Of a stretch of 11,101 nucleotides of DNA, positions 518-9,862 are shown piece by piece. Origin of the DNA: a virus (lineage: Duplodnaviria; Heunggongvirae; Uroviricota; Caudoviricetes); IMG/VR virus record IMGVR_UViG_2663763286_000016, positions 1-11,101 of that record, one strand, 5' to 3'. How positions within the stretch are numbered: the first letter of the stretch is position 1; each line of letters opens with the position of its first letter. A program made the translations under genes and the position numbers. The notes below the pieces were generated by a model that worked only from the letters and a program-made list of their open reading frames with translations, searched no databases and was not told where the DNA came from.

Positions 518-709
518 TTAAAGACCTGCCGGGATTTCGATATTATCCTGGTGAATAACTTTATCGACCGGGTAACAGTTACCGGGAATTTTCTGTTCGG
601 TTGCTGCAGTCATACTCTCCTGCATTGTCCTGTGAACACTGACTGCAATATCAACTGCCTCTCCGGAAACAAGAAAAACTGTCAGAACAAGTGCAAATGC
701 TGTATTCAT
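518..709 (-). CDS. Small hypothetical protein (about 63 aa) with a hydrophobic signal-peptide-like or transmembrane N-terminus
   Basis: Internal start of track ORF 518..763. ATG at 709..707 has an AAGGA Shine-Dalgarno 8 nt upstream and overlaps the stop of the upstream ORF in an ATGA arrangement. N-terminus MNTAFALVLTVFLVSGEA is hydrophobic. Start is uncertain; 718 and 763 are alternatives. Confidence 0.4.
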   Translation of the reverse strand: MNTAFALVLTVFLVSGEAVDIAVSVHRTMQESMTAATEQKIPGNCYPVDKVIHQDNIEIPAGL

Positions 710-894
710 TGCCAGCATCCTTTTTGTATCGGACGTAAACGGGCCAACATTGAAAGAATGCATATTTTATTTAATAGCTCCCGTTCGTGTTTTCTCTTGT
801 TAATGGCATCTTCAGTAAATACAGGGTTACTGATAGTGACACCAATTTCAAAACAACCTTCAGACGTATTAACGTTTGGTAATAACGTTTCCAT
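706..894 (-). CDS. Small hypothetical protein (62 aa), translationally coupled to neighbours
   Basis: ORF track 706..894. GAGGA 7 nt upstream of the ATG at 894, overlapping the end of the Rha gene; its stop overlaps the next start (ATGA). No family recognised. Confidence 0.4.
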   Translation of the reverse strand: METLLPNVNTSEGCFEIGVTISNPVFTEDAINKRKHERELLNKICILSMLARLRPIQKGCWQ

Positions 895-1630: not shown

Positions 1631-1655
1631 TAAAAAAACCGCATGAGCGCGGTTA
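1631..1655 (-). terminator. Rho-independent terminator for leftward transcription
   Basis: On the minus strand: AACCGC-GCTCAT-GCGGTT hairpin (5-6 bp GC-rich stem) followed by a run of seven T (plus-strand A run 1632-1638). Lies between the pL-like operon and the Rha gene. Confidence 0.6.
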
Positions 1656-2297
1656 TGCGCAGTAGTCATCATCGGGTTTCCACGCCCGGCACCCGCTTTA
1701 TGAGGTGCAGGTGCACTATAATTCCACCCGTTCTGGTTTTCAATAGCTACATTCAACATTTTCTCTTACCCTTCATCACCGAAGTGAACTTTGTTGATGC
1801 AGTGCCTGGTGCCTCCAGGTGACGTTAACCAGTTAACAATTAACGCCGGATACAGAGAATCCACCCATAACACTGTTTTTGGTTTTAACTGTTCCGCGTG
1901 CGCTGAGCCGCATTCACCGCATCACAAAATTCACTTTAAAAAGGGCGGACATCAGTTCATGGGCAAACAGATGCCGCCAAACGTCACCAGAAAATTGATA
2001 ACAGAGGGCGTTGCAGCGGGGTTGTCACTTAAGCGTATGGTCAACCTGACAACCCGGTGTCCTCAACGGGGAAGGAATAACCCCGCCATACTTACCGCCG
2101 CGCCATTTCGCGGAGTGCCACAACCGGAAGCGCACGGTCGACGAAAATTTAACGACAGGCTATCTATGAACCAGCTACCTCGCCGTGCGCTTTCGCGTTA
2201 TGGTCTGACTTTTCAGGGAAATATCCTTTCAGTAAACTGTCAGTGCCGGATGCTTACCCGTGTCCGGCGCACGCACTCTACCTCACCCGTGAATAAA

Positions 2298-2684
2298 TTA
2301 ATGATTAATTGATATTTTATAGGTGGATTCAACTTTCCCATCGGATGTGTGATGCTTTAAATCACAGGAATTAATACTGCTTGCTGTAAAGTGATTTTCA
2401 AGGGGGGCTATTCGAATCCCTTTCTTTTTCATTAACAGGCCAAATCCCTTATTAATGATGTCCATTAATTCCAGAAAGTATTTTTCATGTAAATCCTGGT
2501 TATCAGAGAGCTGCTTCTCTTCGTATAGCCCGATAAAGGCTCGGCGCACGTTACCGGATATATTATCGATGGTTTCTTTTTCTACGGTACTCAGGTCAGG
2601 AGTAGCCAATTGAGAACGAACTATATTCGCTGCCATTTCCTGGAATGGTATTGGTAAATCTTTAAATTCCATCGTCAACCTCAT
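2298..2684 (-). CDS. Hypothetical early-left protein (about 124-128 aa), AT-rich gene
   Basis: ORF track 2298..2684. ATG at 2684..2682 overlaps the upstream stop (TGATG); an alternative ATG at 2672 has a GAGG Shine-Dalgarno (MEFKDLPIPFQEM...). No family recognised. Confidence 0.55.
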   Translation of the reverse strand: MRLTMEFKDLPIPFQEMAANIVRSQLATPDLSTVEKETIDNISGNVRRAFIGLYEEKQLSDNQDLHEKYFLELMDIINKGFGLLMKKKGIRIAPLENHFTASSINSCDLKHHTSDGKVESTYKISINH

Positions 2685-2836
2685 CAGTCAGTGTTTCTGG
2701 CTAACCAGCGACGCGCGCCAGATTCGGTTTTAAGCGTTTTGCTTTTGGTATACGTCATTGCGGTGAACGTACCGTCCTGGTTTGGGAACACGCCGCACAC
2801 CAGAGATTCGTTGTTGCCAAGATCGATAGTATCCAT
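2684..2836 (-). CDS. Small hypothetical protein (50 aa), first gene of the pL-like operon
   Basis: Internal ATG at 2836..2834 of track ORF 2684..2890 (MDTIDLGNNESLVCGVFPNQDGTFTAMTYTKSKTLKTESGARRWLARNTD), GAGG 5 nt upstream. The track start at 2890 is a GTG that would sit only about 17 nt below the predicted transcription start. Confidence 0.45.
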   Translation of the reverse strand: MDTIDLGNNESLVCGVFPNQDGTFTAMTYTKSKTLKTESGARRWLARNTD

Positions 2837-2886
2837 GCTGACCTCATTTCCCCTTAACGCCGGGGTAGCGGAACTGTTTGCTGAGA

Positions 2887-2900
2887 ACACCGTGCGGTGT
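2887..2900. promoter_or_regulatory. 14-bp palindrome ACACCGTGCGGTGT in the leader of the pL-like transcript
   Basis: Perfect 6-bp inverted arms with a 2-nt centre, read directly. Could be a protein-binding site or an RNA hairpin. Confidence 0.3.
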
Positions 2901-2913
2901 CTTGGTGGAGATT

Positions 2914-2942
2914 AATTTAGAATAACCTAACAAATGTGGCAA
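2914..2942 (-). promoter_or_regulatory. pL-like sigma70 promoter directing leftward transcription
   Basis: On the minus strand: TTGCCA (plus 2942..2937), 17-bp spacer, TAAATT (plus 2919..2914). One TTAG-N6-CTAA palindrome overlaps the -10 and spacer, a second lies just upstream of the -35. Confidence 0.5.
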
Positions 2943-2967
2943 GTATTTTTTGTTAGATTGGTCTAAC
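2917..2967. promoter_or_regulatory. Two putative operator palindromes of TTAG-N6-CTAA type (OL-like)
   Basis: TTAGAATAACCTAA at 2917-2930 and GTTAGATTGGTCTAAC at 2952-2967. The same motif recurs twice between the repressor and cro-like genes. Confidence 0.5.
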
Positions 2968-3004
2968 AAAAAGAGTGAGGGAATCTAAGTAACTGAAAGG
3001 AGTG

Positions 3005-3412
3005 TTATTTTATTGATTTGTTTTTACGTGCTTTAAGCATTTCTTCGAAGAGTTTATTGAAATTCTCTACTCTTGCGCGCATTTCAGACAGTAAGGCTTC
3101 CTGCTCGGAGGAGGGAAGAGCATCGAATAATTCGATCAATTCTTTGTGGCTGGGAGTTAACTCGGTTTCCACATGAAGTTCTTGTGCTGGCACTGGTGCC
3201 TTGTCTTCGTCACCAAACATTAGCCATGTAGGCGAGCACTTCAGCGCATCAGCTAAAGCAAATAACCGCTTCCCGACCGGTTGGGTTTCGTCTCTTTCCC
3301 ATTGTGAAATTGTGACGTGAGCTACCCCAGCGAGGCGTGCAGCTTCTCGTTGTGTTAGGCGTAATTCTTTTCGTCGTGCCAGAACTCGCTGGCCTAGGGT
3401 TCTTGTATCCAT
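3005..3412 (-). CDS. Phage repressor, XRE-family helix-turn-helix, 135 aa, no S24 peptidase domain
   Basis: N-terminus LGQRVLARRKELRLTQREAARLAGVAHVTISQWERDETQP is a classic Cro/CI-type HTH. It is divergent from the cro-like gene. No Shine-Dalgarno before the ATG at 3412 and a TAGAAT -10 about 9 nt upstream suggest a near-leaderless transcript, as for lambda cI from pRM. Confidence 0.8.
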   Translation of the reverse strand: MDTRTLGQRVLARRKELRLTQREAARLAGVAHVTISQWERDETQPVGKRLFALADALKCSPTWLMFGDEDKAPVPAQELHVETELTPSHKELIELFDALPSSEQEALLSEMRARVENFNKLFEEMLKARKNKSIK

Positions 3413-3414
3413 AG

Positions 3415-3478
3415 TTAGGTAATTCTAATTTTTCTTGACTTAGGTATCCCGCGCACATTACCGTTAGGAATATCTAAC
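3415..3478. promoter_or_regulatory. OR-like region: two TTAG-N6-CTAA palindromes plus candidate divergent promoters
   Basis: TTAGGTAATTCTAA at 3415-3428 and GTTAGGAATATCTAAC at 3463-3478. Minus-strand TAGAAT -10 (plus 3427..3422) overlaps the first palindrome. Plus-strand TTGACT at 3435-3440 is a candidate -35; its -10 was not convincingly resolved. Confidence 0.45.
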
Positions 3479-3492
3479 AAGAGGGGGCTTTG

Positions 3493-3720
3493 ATGCTTAA
3501 AGTTGACGCAATTACTTTTTTTGGCAGCAAAACAAAACTTGCCAATGCCGCAGGAGTGAAACTGGCAAGTGTTGCTGCATGGGGGGAACTGGTTCCTGAA
3601 GGTCGCGCGATGCGCCTGCAAGAGGCATCCGGCGGGGAACTTCAGTACGACCCCAAAGTTTATGACGAATATCGTAAGGCAAAGCGGGCGGGGCGGTTGA
3701 ACAATGAAAATCACCCCTGA
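3493..3720 (+). CDS. Cro-like DNA-binding protein (YdaS-like), 75 aa
   Basis: ATG at 3493 with GAGGGGG 5 nt upstream (the track start at 3490 is TTG). Sequence LKVDAITFFGSKTKLANAAGVKLASVAAWGELVPEGRAMRLQEASGGEL fits the YdaS/Cro pattern as remembered. Position divergent from the repressor. Confidence 0.75.
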   Translation: MLKVDAITFFGSKTKLANAAGVKLASVAAWGELVPEGRAMRLQEASGGELQYDPKVYDEYRKAKRAGRLNNENHP

Positions 3721-4225
3721 ACAGGTTTGTGAGGCTCTGGATGCCTGGGTATGCCGACCAGGAATGACACAGGAGCAGGCGACGATATTAATCACGGAAG
3801 CATTCTGGGCTCTGAAAGAACGCCCGAACATCGATGTTCAACGCGTCACGTTTAATGATGGCGAGGTTGATCAACGGGCGTTGGGCGTTAACCGGGTGAA
3901 GATATTCGAACGCTGGAAAGCTATCGACACCAGGGATAAGCGGGAAAAATTCACGGCGCTGATTCCGGCAATTATGGAGGCTATCCGGATCAGCGATTTC
4001 AGGTTGTATTGTGAAATTACTGACGGAAAAAGCATTACGTACATGATCGCCGGGTTAAACAAAGAATATGGTGATGTGGTGGAGTCCGGGCTGCTTTTTG
4101 CGGATCCATCTGTTGTGGAACGTGAGACTGACGAGCTTATAGAAAAAGCTATTGCTTTCAAGCATGCGTATCGTCAGCAATACCAACAAAAAGCTGGATG
4201 GAATTATGAGCCTTCTTTTTGCTGA
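3704..4225 (+). CDS. YdaT-like / cII-position early regulator, 173 aa
   Basis: ORF track 3704..4225, overlapping the cro-like stop. Central ALIPAIMEAI region resembles YdaT-family proteins of the Rac prophage (recollection, moderate certainty). Confidence 0.65.
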   Translation: MKITPEQVCEALDAWVCRPGMTQEQATILITEAFWALKERPNIDVQRVTFNDGEVDQRALGVNRVKIFERWKAIDTRDKREKFTALIPAIMEAIRISDFRLYCEITDGKSITYMIAGLNKEYGDVVESGLLFADPSVVERETDELIEKAIAFKHAYRQQYQQKAGWNYEPSFC

Positions 4226-5986: not shown

Positions 5987-7018
5987 ATGTCTATTAATCC
6001 TAAACTTAAGCGTATCGCGCGACGCTATCCAGCGTTATTCCAATATGAGTCCCCCTATATGGCAAGAAAATTAATAATATTCGGCAACGGTCTCGGTATG
6101 GCTTTAGATCCTGCTCACTTCTCCTTAGACAGAGCGTTGGAAGAAATTTGGCATCGCCCCAATTTTTTAAAAGATATCCACAAGCAACTTATCGAGCGTT
6201 GTCTTCAGCGGCAAGGTCCACCAGAAGGAGAACATGAGTTGGATACCCTTCACCAGGCTGTCACATATTGTAAAGCTCTTGCTCAAATTGGAGAGGGGAA
6301 CGTGCATTGGCTTACTGACGATGGACTAAACTTCCCCAAAATTACCGCCACTTATATTCACAAAGTTGCAACCAGGTTGCATAATTACGATAAAGGTTTG
6401 CCACAAAGATTCGAAAATGCGCTTGTGGAGTTTGTAAAGAACACACACTCACATATCGCGACATTAAACTATGACAAATTATTATACAATTCATTCATAG
6501 ATAATGATATATTCAACGGGTATGATGGGGTTTTAGTTGATGGGATGCTAAGCCACGGATTTTCCTCTGCAGCGCTCGAACGGAAATACAATCGTAGGTT
6601 TGGTTATTATTTGCACTTGCATGGTTCACCACTATTTATTAATCAGCATGAAAATGTTTTAAAACTTTCACGCTCACAACTTACTCTTGACATAGATGAA
6701 CCTAGTGAGCATATAGTGTTAACTCATATAAAAAGAAAACCGTCAGTTATAGCAGCATCTAATGTTCTTTCTACGTACTGGGATTATTTGCAGTTTGCAT
6801 TATTTGAATCAGAAGAAATAATATTGTTTGGTTACTCTGGTCTCGATATTCACCTTAACCTGCTTATTCGACCTTACCTAACCTCTAAGCCTTTAAGAGT
6901 AATTGAGTGGAGCGGTGCTGGTGAACAAAACGCTCGTGAGATATATTGGAAAAACCAGTTGAGACGGGAAGTTACTGTAATTAGGTTGGATAACATCACT
7001 GATTTTATTGATTGGTAG
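5987..7018 (+). CDS. SIR2-like protein (SIR2_2 / defence-type sirtuin fold), 343 aa; candidate NAD-consuming defence effector
   Basis: Glycine-rich N-terminal motif LIIFGNGLGMAL, TLNYD motif (residues 159-163), HLHGS (210-214) and a C-terminal LFGYSGLD motif, matching the spacing and residues of SIR2_2-family domains as in ThsA/DSR proteins (from memory). The gene looks markedly AT-rich. Start uncertain: 5987 or the in-frame ATG at 6059. Confidence 0.65.
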   Translation: MSINPKLKRIARRYPALFQYESPYMARKLIIFGNGLGMALDPAHFSLDRALEEIWHRPNFLKDIHKQLIERCLQRQGPPEGEHELDTLHQAVTYCKALAQIGEGNVHWLTDDGLNFPKITATYIHKVATRLHNYDKGLPQRFENALVEFVKNTHSHIATLNYDKLLYNSFIDNDIFNGYDGVLVDGMLSHGFSSAALERKYNRRFGYYLHLHGSPLFINQHENVLKLSRSQLTLDIDEPSEHIVLTHIKRKPSVIAASNVLSTYWDYLQFALFESEEIILFGYSGLDIHLNLLIRPYLTSKPLRVIEWSGAGEQNAREIYWKNQLRREVTVIRLDNITDFIDW

Positions 7019-7178: not shown

Positions 7179-7279
7179 TTTTATATTGGCGAGGTGACGG
7201 GAGTTAAGTAGAATTGCTGCGGGTGCTTGAGGCTATCTGCCTCAGGCATGAACACCAAAAGGCAGATAGAGAAAAGCCC

Positions 7280-7342
7280 CAGTTAACATTACGCGTCCTG
7301 CAAGACGCTTAACATTAATCTGAGGCCATATCTATGCGACAC
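7280..7342 (-). ncRNA. Putative Sok-like antisense RNA (hypothetical; extent approximate)
   Basis: Candidate minus-strand promoter: TTGACC (plus 7376..7371), 16-bp spacer, GCTAAT (plus 7354..7349). This would start an antisense transcript covering the start of the short leader ORF, as in hok/sok loci. No clear terminator was identified. Confidence 0.2.
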
Positions 7343-7393
7343 ATAGAGATTAGCCTCTTACGGACCAAAAGGTCAAGGAGAAGCAGGCTATGA
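7334..7393 (+). CDS. Short leader ORF (19 aa) coupled to hok; mok-like by position
   Basis: ATG at 7334 sits inside a hairpin (TCTATG cgaca CATAGA). The TGA at 7391-7393 overlaps the hok ATG at 7390-7392. Confidence 0.3.
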   Translation: MRHIEISLLRTKRSRRSRL

Positions 7394-7545
7394 AGCAGCA
7401 AAAGGCGATGTTAATCGCCCTGATCGTCATCTGTTTAACCGTCATAGTGACGGCACTGGTAACGAGGAAAGACCTCTGCGAGGTACGAATCCGAACCGGC
7501 CAGACGGAGGTCGCTGTCTTCACAGCTTACGAACCTGAGGAGTAA
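7390..7545 (+). CDS. hokD: Hok/Gef-family type I toxin, 51 aa (matches HokD/RelF as remembered)
   Basis: Hand translation MKQQKAMLIALIVICLTVIVTALVTRKDLCEVRIRTGQTEVAVFTAYEPEE. AAGGAG 9 nt upstream. Upstream leader is rich in long-range complementary segments. Confidence 0.88.
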   Translation: MKQQKAMLIALIVICLTVIVTALVTRKDLCEVRIRTGQTEVAVFTAYEPEE

Positions 7546-7709: not shown

Positions 7710-8360
7710 ATGAATGAAAATCAGTTAGCTCCTTGTTGGGAATTTCAACCTTATCTTGCTGAAAACTATGTTCGCCACTTGTTGGCGGAGATCGCTAACG
7801 TACTTGAGCAGCTGTACTATCATAAGCACGCATTAGACAGCAACTGGTCTGAAGGTGTAAGGGCTTATGATTGGGTCAGAAATCATCTTATTCAAAATGA
7901 AGATGCAATTCCTGGCCTTGAGATGATTTCCAAGGGGTTGGACTATGTAGTTGCTTTAAATAAAGTTCCGCTACAATTTACCAAAGATTGCATTAATAAC
8001 CCCAAAAAGAAACATCGTCTGCGTCGAAATAAAGTAGAGTATGAGCAGCTCTCATTGTTTGGTGATGTTGAGGCTGAGCAAGATATTACATGGCGAGTCA
8101 TAGCTGAGCCTTTTTTATCCGAAGAGGGCGATGGTGAATTAGAGTCCACACTGCCTCGTTGGGAGGTAGCTCTTGTTGGATTTAATACTTATGGTGCTCA
8201 GATTAGTATAGTTTCTCATCAATCTACAGCATCGATGCCGCTTATGCCTCTTGATTATAACACACTCCCTGACGAAGCGGAGATTAATAAGGTGCCTCTT
8301 CGTCGGCGTACGAAGGATAAAGATTTGGATGTGAGCAGTGATGGAACATCAGGTGAATAA
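7710..8360 (+). CDS. Hypothetical protein, 216 aa, first gene of a two-gene module; contains a QLSLF pentapeptide
   Basis: ORF track 7710..8360. No family recognised. Residues 113-117 are QLSLF, flanked by a basic run (NPKKKHRLRRNK) and an acidic run. The 3' end overlaps the start of the next gene. Confidence 0.65.
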   Translation: MNENQLAPCWEFQPYLAENYVRHLLAEIANVLEQLYYHKHALDSNWSEGVRAYDWVRNHLIQNEDAIPGLEMISKGLDYVVALNKVPLQFTKDCINNPKKKHRLRRNKVEYEQLSLFGDVEAEQDITWRVIAEPFLSEEGDGELESTLPRWEVALVGFNTYGAQISIVSHQSTASMPLMPLDYNTLPDEAEINKVPLRRRTKDKDLDVSSDGTSGE

Positions 8361-9444
8361 CTTCACTGAGTATCGGGGTGATAAGCTCAAACTAGCGAGA
8401 ATGGCTGTTGGGCTTTCTTGTGAAGAGTTAGCCGAAAAAATTGGCAAGACAAAGCAATTCGTTAGCAAACTGGAGAAGGGGTGCAGGCCATCGGAGCAAT
8501 GTCTTGAGTTAATATCTTCAGCGCTTATGATTAAGTCCAGTTTTCTTTTTACTGAACGAAAATACGCTCTGGAAAGTGATGTCTGCCATTTTCGGAGTAA
8601 GAAGTCCAGGACTCAAACGCTGACTAATAGTGTATTGGCCAGGGCTGAGATTCTTAATATTATAATTTCTGCTGTTGAAGGTGAAATCGAATTTCCTGAC
8701 GTTAACATACCGGAGCACCCAGGGGCTGAATTACTTACTCCGAATGATATTGAGCGAGTGGCAGAAGATTGTCGCCGTGCCTGGAATTTAGGTCTTGGCC
8801 CTATATCATCAATGGTTAAATTGGCGGAGAGTTTAGGGGTAATCGTTGCGCATGTTACGGGAGTCGATGATCGTGTTGATGCTTTTACTGTTCACAATAA
8901 CAGGCCTGTTATCATCAGGAACAATGTTAAAAAAAGCATATGTAGATTTCGCTCTGATTTAGGTCATGAATTAGGGCATTTAGTAATGCATGAGGGCATA
9001 ACGACAGGTGATAAACTTACGGAATCACAAGCCGATCACTTTTCGAGCGCCTTATTAGTTCCCAGGTTATCTTTCATTAAAGAATTTCCACGAATACGAG
9101 GTAAGCAATTCGACTGGAATGCTCTGGTTGAATTTAAACTTAGATGGAAAATCAGCCTTAAAATGTGTATTTATCGAGCCAGCGCATTAGGCTTATTGAC
9201 CCAGGAACAGGCAAGAACTGGCTATATGCATCTTAATTCCAGAGGGTATACGAGAGTTGAACCTGGTGATGAACTTTTGCGCCCTGAAGAACCCGGCATG
9301 CTGGCCGAGGCGATTGAAATGCTGGATGATGCAACCTGGCTAAGAATTCTTATGAAAACTGGCTTGAGCCAAGATTTAATTCGTGAGTTGTTCTCCATCA
9401 ACAGACCTATTACAAATCCAAGAAATATTTTCCAGATTGTTTGA
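8341..9444 (+). CDS. Fusion of XRE-family HTH and ImmA/IrrE-type zinc metallopeptidase (COG2856-like), about 367 aa
   Basis: N-terminal HTH (LKLARMAVGLSCEELAEKIGKTKQFVSKLEKG) and an HEXXH motif (HELGH, residues 210-214, around nt 8965-8979). ATG at 8341; the track start at 8338 is GTG. Confidence 0.8.
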   Translation: MEHQVNNFTEYRGDKLKLARMAVGLSCEELAEKIGKTKQFVSKLEKGCRPSEQCLELISSALMIKSSFLFTERKYALESDVCHFRSKKSRTQTLTNSVLARAEILNIIISAVEGEIEFPDVNIPEHPGAELLTPNDIERVAEDCRRAWNLGLGPISSMVKLAESLGVIVAHVTGVDDRVDAFTVHNNRPVIIRNNVKKSICRFRSDLGHELGHLVMHEGITTGDKLTESQADHFSSALLVPRLSFIKEFPRIRGKQFDWNALVEFKLRWKISLKMCIYRASALGLLTQEQARTGYMHLNSRGYTRVEPGDELLRPEEPGMLAEAIEMLDDATWLRILMKTGLSQDLIRELFSINRPITNPRNIFQIV

Positions 9445-9553: not shown

Positions 9554-9862
9554 ATGGACCCCGAACAGGGGGAGTGCTATTTATCTGGAAGGATTCTGTT
9601 GATGAAAATCGAAGAATTACGTGAAATTTTTAGTGAAGATGGCCTCTATACTGTGCGCGTTGAGAATGGCGCTATTGTCAGCCACTGCCGTATTAAATGT
9701 TTACAGTCTCTACATAGGAAGAGTGGAGCTGCGTTAATTTACTTTGTGGATGGACTTGTGACGGATGGTTTTATTTTGCGTGAAAATGAATTTGTCACAT
9801 CATTGCAGTCTCTGAAAGAAGCTGGGCTTAAGGCTGGTTTTTCTGCTTTTGAAGATGAGTGA
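9554..9862 (+). CDS. Hypothetical protein (102 aa; 86 aa if started at 9602)
   Basis: ORF track 9554..9862. AGGGAG 7 nt upstream of 9554; alternative ATG at 9602 with GGAAGGA upstream. No family recognised. Confidence 0.5.
   Translation: MDPEQGECYLSGRILLMKIEELREIFSEDGLYTVRVENGAIVSHCRIKCLQSLHRKSGAALIYFVDGLVTDGFILRENEFVTSLQSLKEAGLKAGFSAFEDE

Follow-up and report, generated by a model that had tools for sequence, protein, structure and literature searches.

The repressor locus in the window (the whole 11,101-base stretch of viral DNA analysed here) is very probably the immunity switch of a Qin-like lambdoid prophage, and the palindromes around the repressor gene are very probably its operators. 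We base this conclusion on sequence comparison with the DicA/DicC/dicBp switch of the Qin prophage in Escherichia coli K-12, which was described in 1988 (Bejar et al., as cited in PMC10448788) and has been tested in part since then. The K-12 dicA-dicC and dicA-dicBp intergenic regions hold operators analogous to lambda OR and OL, and K-12 DicA represses dicC and dicBp (PMC10448788). The window contains a gene for a DicA-type repressor, a divergent dicC gene followed by a YdfX/YdaT-like gene, and Oc-type operators in both control regions. It also contains a dicBp-type promoter with ydfA...dicF...dicB-ydfD downstream and a gene for a Rem-type antirepressor. The OL/OR-like operator logic proposed in the initial annotation matches the published model for the homologous Qin switch, as judged by the repressor (57% identity), DicC (83% identity) and the arms of Oc. 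The system itself is already known, since the operators, their roles and the leaderless repressor mRNA have been published for the K-12 orthologue.

Palindromes flanking the repressor gene

An exact search for TTAGNNNNNNCTAA (TTAG-N6-CTAA) found four matches in the window, at positions 2917-2930, 2953-2966, 3415-3428 and 3464-3477. The chance expectation is 0.14 matches per window. We used 200 dinucleotide-preserving shuffles of the window as a null model; the maximum in any shuffle was two copies, and none of the 200 reached four. All four copies are confined to two short intergenic regions that flank the repressor gene (3005-3412, minus strand). The right-hand pair falls in the gap from the repressor ATG (3412) to that of the cro-like gene (3493). 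The left-hand pair lies 39-88 nt beyond the repressor stop, where it flanks or overlaps a leftward promoter. The exact search and the shuffles bear out the four copies around the repressor that the initial annotation had described, coordinates included, and the search together with a promoter scan confirms its placement of two copies in the gap between the repressor and the cro-like gene and two at the leftward promoter.

We scored the window with a position weight matrix built on the sites of relatives, with the window left out. The four sites scored 29.7 (2947-2972, the highest), 24.9, 23.5 and 17.8 bits (3415-3428, the lowest), and the next best position in the window scored -1.6. In shuffled windows, the per-window matrix maximum reached 19.9 at most, and its 95th percentile was 11.5. 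Information content computed on motif-selected sites is circular for the core positions. We replaced it with a motif-blind alignment of whole intergenic regions from ten loci (the window and nine relatives with repressor identities of 50-99% to that of the window). Conservation in this alignment was seen in the arms TTGTTAG and CTAAC, in the -35 together with the half-site next to it (CTAAGTCAA), and in TTTAGAATT..CTAACTATG. The 6-nt spacers varied.

The four sites are unequal in quality. The copy at 2953-2966 sits within a perfect 26-bp palindrome, and the copy at 3464-3477 has 5-bp arms. In the copies at 2917-2930 and at 3415-3428, only one arm is full; the other consists of no more than the 4-bp core and overlaps a -10 hexamer. 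The plus strand of 2917-2930 is nearly identical to the minus strand of 3415-3428, which places a second TAGAAT at the left-hand site. We considered this hexamer as a promoter -10 and rejected it. It has no -35 element and is followed by no real reading frame, and we therefore treat it as a by-product of site symmetry.

Could these palindromes be chance features of AT-rich intergenic DNA, or terminators and hairpins, rather than sites for a protein? The sites are indeed AT-rich, and 2947-2972 lies just past the repressor stop, where it could form an RNA hairpin. A terminator scan, however, called no intrinsic terminator at any of the sites, and runs of A, not of T, follow the stems. Chance is also at odds with the shuffles and with conservation of the arms while the spacers drift. 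The half-sites covary with the recognition helix of the repressor (described below), and genetics has proven the homologous site of K-12 to be an operator (PMC3441716). We consider this explanation exceedingly improbable.

Comparison with the Qin switch of E. coli K-12

The repressor gene codes for a 135-residue protein that matches K-12 DicA end to end (57% identity over 132 of 135 residues, E = 3e-55). The protein has the hallmarks of the DicA family: a length of about 135 residues, an HTH_3 domain, the C-terminal motif EMRARVxNFNKLFEE and no S24 peptidase domain. A Pfam search with the repressor returned HTH families only and no Peptidase_S24 match, and by this measure the protein is not of the S24/Ala-Gly cleavage type. 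Its N-terminal ~70 residues match the DNA-binding domain of P22 c2 (E = 1.2e-18 for 1adr and 3.5e-18 for 2r1j), and matches to solved structures cover residues 1-71 only. The recognition helix reads AHVTISQWE in the window repressor and SNVAISQWE in P22 c2. The C-terminal part is short and helical, with predicted helices at residues 87-97 and 101-132. A single-sequence AlphaFold model had a mean pLDDT of 52, which is too poor for a fold search, and we therefore make no claim about a C-terminal dimerisation domain beyond the predicted helices. The two-fold symmetry of the operators (consensus TTGTTAG-N6-CTAACAA) suggests that the repressor most likely binds them as a dimer.

The control regions on both sides of the repressor gene can be aligned with those of Qin. 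Read in the dicA orientation, the right-hand region of Qin consists of the dicC start, TTGTTAGTCATAACTAACAA (Oc), 33 nt, TTAGCATTAGCTAA (Oa), CT and the ATG. The corresponding region of the window consists of the dicC start, TTGTTAGATATTCCTAACGG, 32 nt, TTAGAATTACCTAA, CT and the ATG. Downstream of dicA, Qin has TGTTAGCTATAGCATACAA, the -35 TTGACC and then TGTTAGTCATGGCTAATC overlapping the -10. Downstream of the window repressor we found TTGTTAGACCAATCTAACAA, the -35 TTGCCA and then TTGTTAGGTTATTCTAAAT overlapping the -10 TAAATT. The arms of the window and Qin sites are identical (TTGTTAG-N6-CTAACAA), and the spacers are unrelated. The matching positions and arms indicate that the four window palindromes correspond in position to Oc, Oa and the pair of dicBp operators.

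The Oc equivalent occupies 3462-3479 (core TTAGGAATATCTAA, 3464-3477), has the arms GTTAG and CTAAC, and is placed as Oc is in K-12. Both the -10 and the start region of the rightward dicC-like promoter (3435-3464, plus strand) overlap it. DicA binds K-12 Oc in vivo and no longer does so after one A-to-C substitution that gives CTCACAA (Yun et al. 2012, PMC3441716). The same study showed that Oc overlaps the -10 of the dicC promoter, mapped the dicC start by 5' RACE and found that K-12 dicA transcription requires DicA (PMC3441716). The -35 of the window promoter, TTGACT (3435-3440), aligns with the K-12 sequence TTGACT-17-TATCTT. Its -10 is weak, reading as either TACCGT with an 18-nt spacer or TTACCG with a 17-nt spacer, and was placed by alignment with K-12 only. 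The consensus promoter scan did not call this rightward promoter.

The Oa equivalent, TTAGGTAATTCTAA (3415-3428), is an exact match to the motif and ends 2 nt before the repressor ATG. It contains the repressor -10 and spans approximately -13 to +1 of the predicted leaderless transcript. Between the Oc and Oa equivalents we read a degenerate middle site (3440-3453) that the initial annotation did not list. Only its half-site TTAG (3440-3443), which abuts the rightward -35 TTGACT, is intact. From its place in the sequence, this site may function as the equivalent of the K-12 middle operator, Om. The three right-hand positions (3415, 3440 and 3464) are spaced ~24-25 bp apart.

The repressor promoter (3415-3427, minus strand) has the -10 TAGAAT (3427-3422) and a start predicted at 3415 by analogy with K-12. 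The resulting transcript would have a 3-nt leader (ACU), and no Shine-Dalgarno sequence precedes the repressor ATG. Romero et al. (PMC4681348) list the K-12 dicA transcript, which starts 3 nt before the dicA ATG, among five leaderless mRNAs of E. coli. The CTAACTATG context is common to the window and K-12 dicA, and the window -10, whose end is 9 nt from the ATG, is the better of the two. Every immunity class that we recognized among relatives has a TAnnAT-like hexamer 6-9 nt ahead of the ATG, which supports a conserved near-leaderless promoter. The earlier proposal that the repressor mRNA is leaderless and has no Shine-Dalgarno sequence thus appears to hold by homology, given the K-12 dicA start and the retained CTAACTATG. 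A Reg-Seq study found no active dicA start in the stretch that it mutagenised and is therefore uninformative on the dicA promoter footprint.

The left-hand control region contains the leftward dicBp-like promoter TTGCCA-17-TAAATT (2914-2942, minus strand), which aligns with K-12 TTGACC-17-TAATCT and is the sole sigma-70-like promoter that the scan called in 2600-3800. Its transcript would start near 2907. The promoter-proximal operator, TTAGAATAACCTAA (2917-2930), matches the motif exactly and lies at the same position as TGTTAGTCATGGCTAATC in K-12, between the leftward -35 and -10 and overlapping the -10. The promoter-distal operator, TTTTTGTTAG-ATTGGT-CTAACAAAAA (2947-2972, core 2953-2966), lies just upstream of the leftward -35, and its arms are invariant in relatives. 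Its perfect 26-bp palindrome contrasts with the degenerate TGTTAGCTATAGCATACAA at the distal dicBp site of K-12. A conserved half-site is also present near 2985-2988.

The genes on both sides of these control regions resemble those of Qin. DicC (3493-3720, plus strand) is a Cro-like protein of 75 residues with a P22_Cro domain and 83% identity to K-12 DicC. The second gene of the rightward operon (3704-4225, plus strand) codes for a YdfX/YdaT-like protein with a YdaT_toxin domain. Its tblastn match to YdfX covers 3704-3982, and the protein is 90% identical to K-12 YdfX over the first 93 residues. On the leftward side, the first gene codes for YdfA (2684-2836, minus strand; DUF1391), which is 90% identical to K-12 YdfA. 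The second leftward gene (orf128; 2298-2684, minus strand) codes for a 128-residue hypothetical protein that matches phrog_6937. A DicF-like small RNA follows (1943-1992, minus strand). Its Rfam DicF match of 43.5 bits (E = 9.5e-8) falls just below the gathering score of 48 and was found in E-value mode; in a blastn search with K-12 dicF, the first 29 nt matched window positions 1993-1965 at 93%. The distal end of the leftward operon (521-894, minus strand) contains dicB (709-894), which codes for a cell-division inhibitor, and ydfD (521-709), which codes for a lysis protein. The products are 89% and 94% identical, respectively, to their K-12 counterparts by tblastn.

The leftward unit is therefore of the dicBF type, comprising ydfA, orf128, the DicF-like RNA, isrK/C4, a Rha-like gene, dicB and ydfD. 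The initial annotation had described a leftward operon of two genes, and, given the YdfA, DicB and YdfD homologues and the DicF-like RNA, this description must be replaced by a dicBF-type operon with extra cargo. A strong internal promoter (1743-1715) and an isrK terminator (1654-1637) lie within the unit and may split it. Elsewhere in the window, a candidate antirepressor gene (9599-9862, plus strand) codes for a Rem-like protein with 72% identity to K-12 Rem over all 83 residues. The window also carries intact replication genes and defence genes. Records of similar phages and of E. coli annotate the genes of this locus as dicA, dicC, ydfA and ydfC.

The window thus shares with Qin the gene order (ydfD-dicB...dicF-ydfA, dicA, and divergent dicC and ydfX), a 135-residue repressor, the CTAACTATG start context, a Rem homologue and operators equally placed relative to the promoters and the ATG. 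It differs from Qin in that the repressor is just 57% identical and all of the spacers are different. In the window, the middle site is reduced to a half-site and the leftward cargo includes orf128, isrK/C4 and the Rha-like gene.

Recognition helices and operators among relatives

We scanned genome and viral collections with a DicA alignment, which returned 101 loci. Eighty-nine of these have a recognition helix of the form [AS]HV[ST][IV]SQWE, and they represent 33 distinct upstream and 54 distinct downstream sequences. Across these distinct sequences the arms of the sites are conserved and the spacers vary.

We compared recognition helices with operators in 22 loci (the window and 21 relatives), which fell into at least four immunity classes. 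Each helix was associated with the same kind of half-site in both control regions. Helices of the form [AS]HV[ST][IV]SQWE occurred with TTAG/CTAA half-sites, S[GD]SSISLWE with TTGAG-N4-CTCAA, S[HY]A[ST]ISLWE with TTGTTGAG..TTAACAA, and SSVSVFKWE with ATAAC-N4-GTTAT. In this sample of related loci, two or three positions of the recognition helix (HV..Q, GS..L, SV..K) covary with half-site sequence and spacing. The promoter geometry, the predicted leaderless start and the presence of a half-site adjacent to the -35 are constant across the immunity classes, and the sequence of that half-site changes with the class. The covariation between helix and half-site points to the HTH repressor as the reader of these sites.

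The same observation bears on whether another regulator, such as a YdaT/YdfX-like CII analogue or a host nucleoid protein, binds the sites in place of the XRE-type repressor. YdaT-family proteins bind DNA in related prophages, and H-NS/Cnu influences DicA binding at K-12 Oc (PMC3441716). In K-12, however, repression through Oc is lost when dicA is deleted and returns when DicA is supplied (PMC3441716). The half-sites also track the DicA recognition helix from class to class, and we judge a different regulator to be very unlikely.

It is harder to say whether the repressor uses all four sites. The initial annotation presented the palindromes as four like copies. All four do share the same core, but the sites are not equivalent: in a single-site assay in vivo, reported as 'data not shown', K-12 DicA bound neither isolated Oa nor isolated Om (PMC3441716). 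Because K-12 DicA did not bind isolated Oa, 3415-3428 is the least certain repressor site in the window; it may need cooperativity or may serve mainly DicC. A division of labor can be proposed in which the repressor uses the full-arm sites 3462-3479 and 2947-2972 (and perhaps 2917-2930), and in which 3415-3428 is mainly a DicC site that turns off repressor synthesis.

Several observations fit this division. The matrix score of 3415-3428 is below the best score from the shuffled windows. In O157:H7, dicA transcription is repressed when DicC is overexpressed (as cited in PMC10448788). Immunity classes 2 and 3 have different DicA helices but the same DicC helix, SAVSQW, and the same ATG-proximal site, TTAAGATATCTAAA. 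Within the TTAG class, in contrast, the ATG-proximal site is constant while the DicC helix varies widely. The comparison of the ATG-proximal site with the DicC helix therefore gives a mixed result, with classes 2 and 3 compatible with a DicC site and the TTAG class contradicting it. The core of 3415-3428 is also the same as in sites known to bind DicA, and the K-12 negative result comes from an assay of single sites for which the data were not shown.

In lambda and P22, the repressor and Cro share all operators, and a weak site becomes occupied through cooperativity or at high levels of repressor. This sharing of operators by both proteins argues against an exclusive assignment of sites. We regard the proposed division as possible but rather unlikely, and we retain the reading in which all four palindromes are operators of the DicA-type switch.

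Proposed regulation and relation to other phage switches

By analogy with the K-12 system, occupancy of the strong site at 3462-3479 would shut the rightward promoter and so silence dicC, the ydfX-like gene and the replication genes, and would also permit or activate the weak, divergent promoter of the repressor gene. DicC and/or excess repressor could use 3415-3428 to stop repressor synthesis, which would give this site the role of OR3. On the left, 2917-2930 (inside the promoter) and 2947-2972 (just upstream) would together block the dicBp-like promoter, which would otherwise drive ydfA, orf128, the DicF-like RNA, isrK/C4, the Rha-like gene, dicB and ydfD. Release would occur through the Rem-like antirepressor, thermal or chemical destabilisation, or spontaneous bistable switching. 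In this scheme we presume that the window proteins behave as their K-12 counterparts do, and we extrapolate both the cooperativity and the protein that uses the ATG-proximal site.

K-12 DicA is short and without a RecA cleavage site, and Rem, which was discovered through its similarity to the Gifsy and Fels antirepressors, relieves DicA repression (Ragunathan et al. 2023, PMC10448788). The window repressor lacks an S24 domain and a Rem homologue is present, and induction by an antirepressor or by spontaneous switching is therefore expected. By comparison with K-12, induction probably occurs through the Rem-like antirepressor (9599-9862) and not through RecA cleavage.

We compared the locus with other known switches. 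The likeness to lambda OL/OR in the initial annotation stands as far as operator logic is concerned. The closest model, however, is P22 c2 or DicA with an antirepressor rather than the RecA-cleaved CI of lambda, given that the repressor has no S24 domain and that a Rem homologue is present. As in lambda, the repressor is predicted to block a PR-like and a PL-like promoter, the repressor promoter would be weak and repressor-dependent, and the repressor mRNA would be leaderless. The ~24-25 bp spacing of the right-hand positions also resembles lambda OR. Lambda OR and OL, however, have three full operators each, whereas the window has two full palindromes and a half-site per region. The window repressor and lambda CI are unrelated in their domains beyond the HTH, and they differ in the predicted induction by an antirepressor. 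Nor is the window locus known to form an OL-OR loop.

The window locus resembles that of P22 in the homologous c2 DNA-binding domain, the P22_Cro-family Cro protein and the divergent promoters with shared operators. Unlike P22 c2, the window repressor has no C-terminal S24 or oligomerisation domain, and RecA-mediated cleavage is therefore not expected. The P22 operator is the 18-bp sequence ATTTAAG-N4-CTTAAAT, from which the window sites differ in both half-site sequence and spacing.

Two further systems share features with the locus. The Salmonella Gifsy repressors GfoR and GfhR are likewise short and non-cleavable and are inactivated by small antirepressors, which are LexA-controlled (as discussed in PMC10448788). 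In the RacR/YdaS/YdaT system of the Rac prophage, the repressor mRNA is leaderless, as is predicted for the window; a Cro-like gene diverges from the repressor gene and precedes one of the YdaT family, and the repressor has several sites between the divergent genes. RacR, however, belongs to a different repressor family and uses different operators. The locus is thus likely to be lambda-like in logic, P22 c2-related in its DNA-binding domain and Gifsy-like in its induction.

Our analysis re-derives the published DicA/DicC/dicBp switch, including the leaderless repressor mRNA, from raw sequence, and is minor as a discovery. It also assigns a function to a very common prophage repressor of E. 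coli and Escherichia albertii that RefSeq labels just 'helix-turn-helix domain-containing protein'. The window repressor is 100% identical to one in E. albertii, and prophage contigs commonly carry near-identical copies. The only material that appears to be mildly new is the family-wide covariation of the recognition helix with operator sequence and spacing. One could combine our observations into a broader reading, in which the DicA family represents a compact natural recognition code for P22 c2-like HTH domains, the ATG-proximal site belongs mainly to DicC, and the window allele is homoimmune with K-12 Qin despite 57% identity. We put this combination forward as speculation and think it unlikely to hold as a whole. 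The window allele is predicted to share operator specificity with Qin DicA, and the two therefore probably share immunity and cross-regulation. The class-wise covariation of helix and operator could guide the engineering of repressor specificity.

Operators and leader of the switch locus

The operators at 2914-2931 and 3414-3431 both lie over -10 hexamers. They are 89% complementary across 18 nt and thus represent a near-identical sequence placed in opposite orientations. Because of this relationship, the plus strand at 2918-2923 also reads TAGAAT. Neither a -35 element nor a real ORF was found downstream of this plus-strand hexamer.

We compared the locus to DicA-type relatives belonging to other immunity classes (L009, L011-L014, and L016-L019). 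The spacing between half-sites depends on the class, being either N6 or N4 within a single repressor family. The half-site that adjoins the dicC -35 element also varies with immunity class. Some classes, as in L013 (ATAACTTTTGTTAT), keep the full middle palindrome; the window has a half-site only. Three DicA-type loci from genome_contigs records (L007, L011, and L012) look typical of Enterobacteriaceae; the MAGs that contain them are labelled Collinsella, Bacillota, and Veillonella, which most likely reflects contamination during assembly binning.

The 5' UTR of the leftward dicBF-type operon (2887-2900 and 2845-2860) contains a hairpin, ACACCGCACGGTGT, that is nearly invariant among relatives, as is the stretch leading onward to CCCCGGCGTTAAGGGG. 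Loci that belong to other immunity classes, and whose operators differ, keep this leader block too. The leader may hold an element for processing, antitermination, or translational control.

RNA genes within the leftward operon

Two predicted RNAs on the minus strand, C4 antisense RNA (1520-1607; Rfam, 79 bits) and isrK (1632-1708; Rfam, 64 bits), are located upstream of a Rha/Ant-like regulator gene on the same strand (about 905-1459; phrog_995, Pfam Phage_pRha). isrK is flanked by a strong promoter-like site on the minus strand (TTGAAA-17-TATAGT, 1743..1715) and a minus-strand terminator (1654..1637). Both RNAs are overlapped by a 284-aa ORF (905-1759) that has an N-terminal 'Ash' part and is probably an over-call. 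Taken together, these elements resemble an antirepressor control module, of the P1 or Gifsy type, inserted in the dicBF-type operon.

A DicF-like RNA on the minus strand (1943-1992) scored 43.5 bits (E = 9.5e-8), just under the Rfam gathering score of 48. When K-12 dicF was used as a blastn query, the match was limited to its first 29 nt (93%, window 1993-1965). This RNA may be a DicF variant whose 3' half differs. A weak STnc100-like match (32 bits, 1790-1931, minus strand) adjoins it.

Toxin-antitoxin and candidate defence genes

A sok RNA (7221-7392; Rfam, 107 bits) and a Hok-like 51-aa ORF (7390-7545) form a hok/sok-type toxin-antitoxin pair spanning 7221-7545. In Qin, the cryptic prophage of E. 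coli K-12, hokD sits at the equivalent position.

The 343-aa protein encoded at 5987-7018 (plus strand) weakly matches a SIR2-like domain (Pfam SIR2_2, E = 1e-5; PADLOC Aga_SIR2 and PDC-S21, about 1e-5) and had no PHROG match. It may represent a stand-alone SIR2 defence gene. Two overlapping plus-strand genes (7710-9444) were matched as a defence pair in PADLOC: RmrT (7710-8360, E = 5e-25) and RmrA (8338-9444, E = 6e-105), the latter coding for a protein in which an HTH is joined with a Peptidase_M78/ImmA-like domain. The RmrT/RmrA pair looks like a defence system, with the prophage replication genes on one side and the rem-like gene, a candidate antirepressor gene, on the other.
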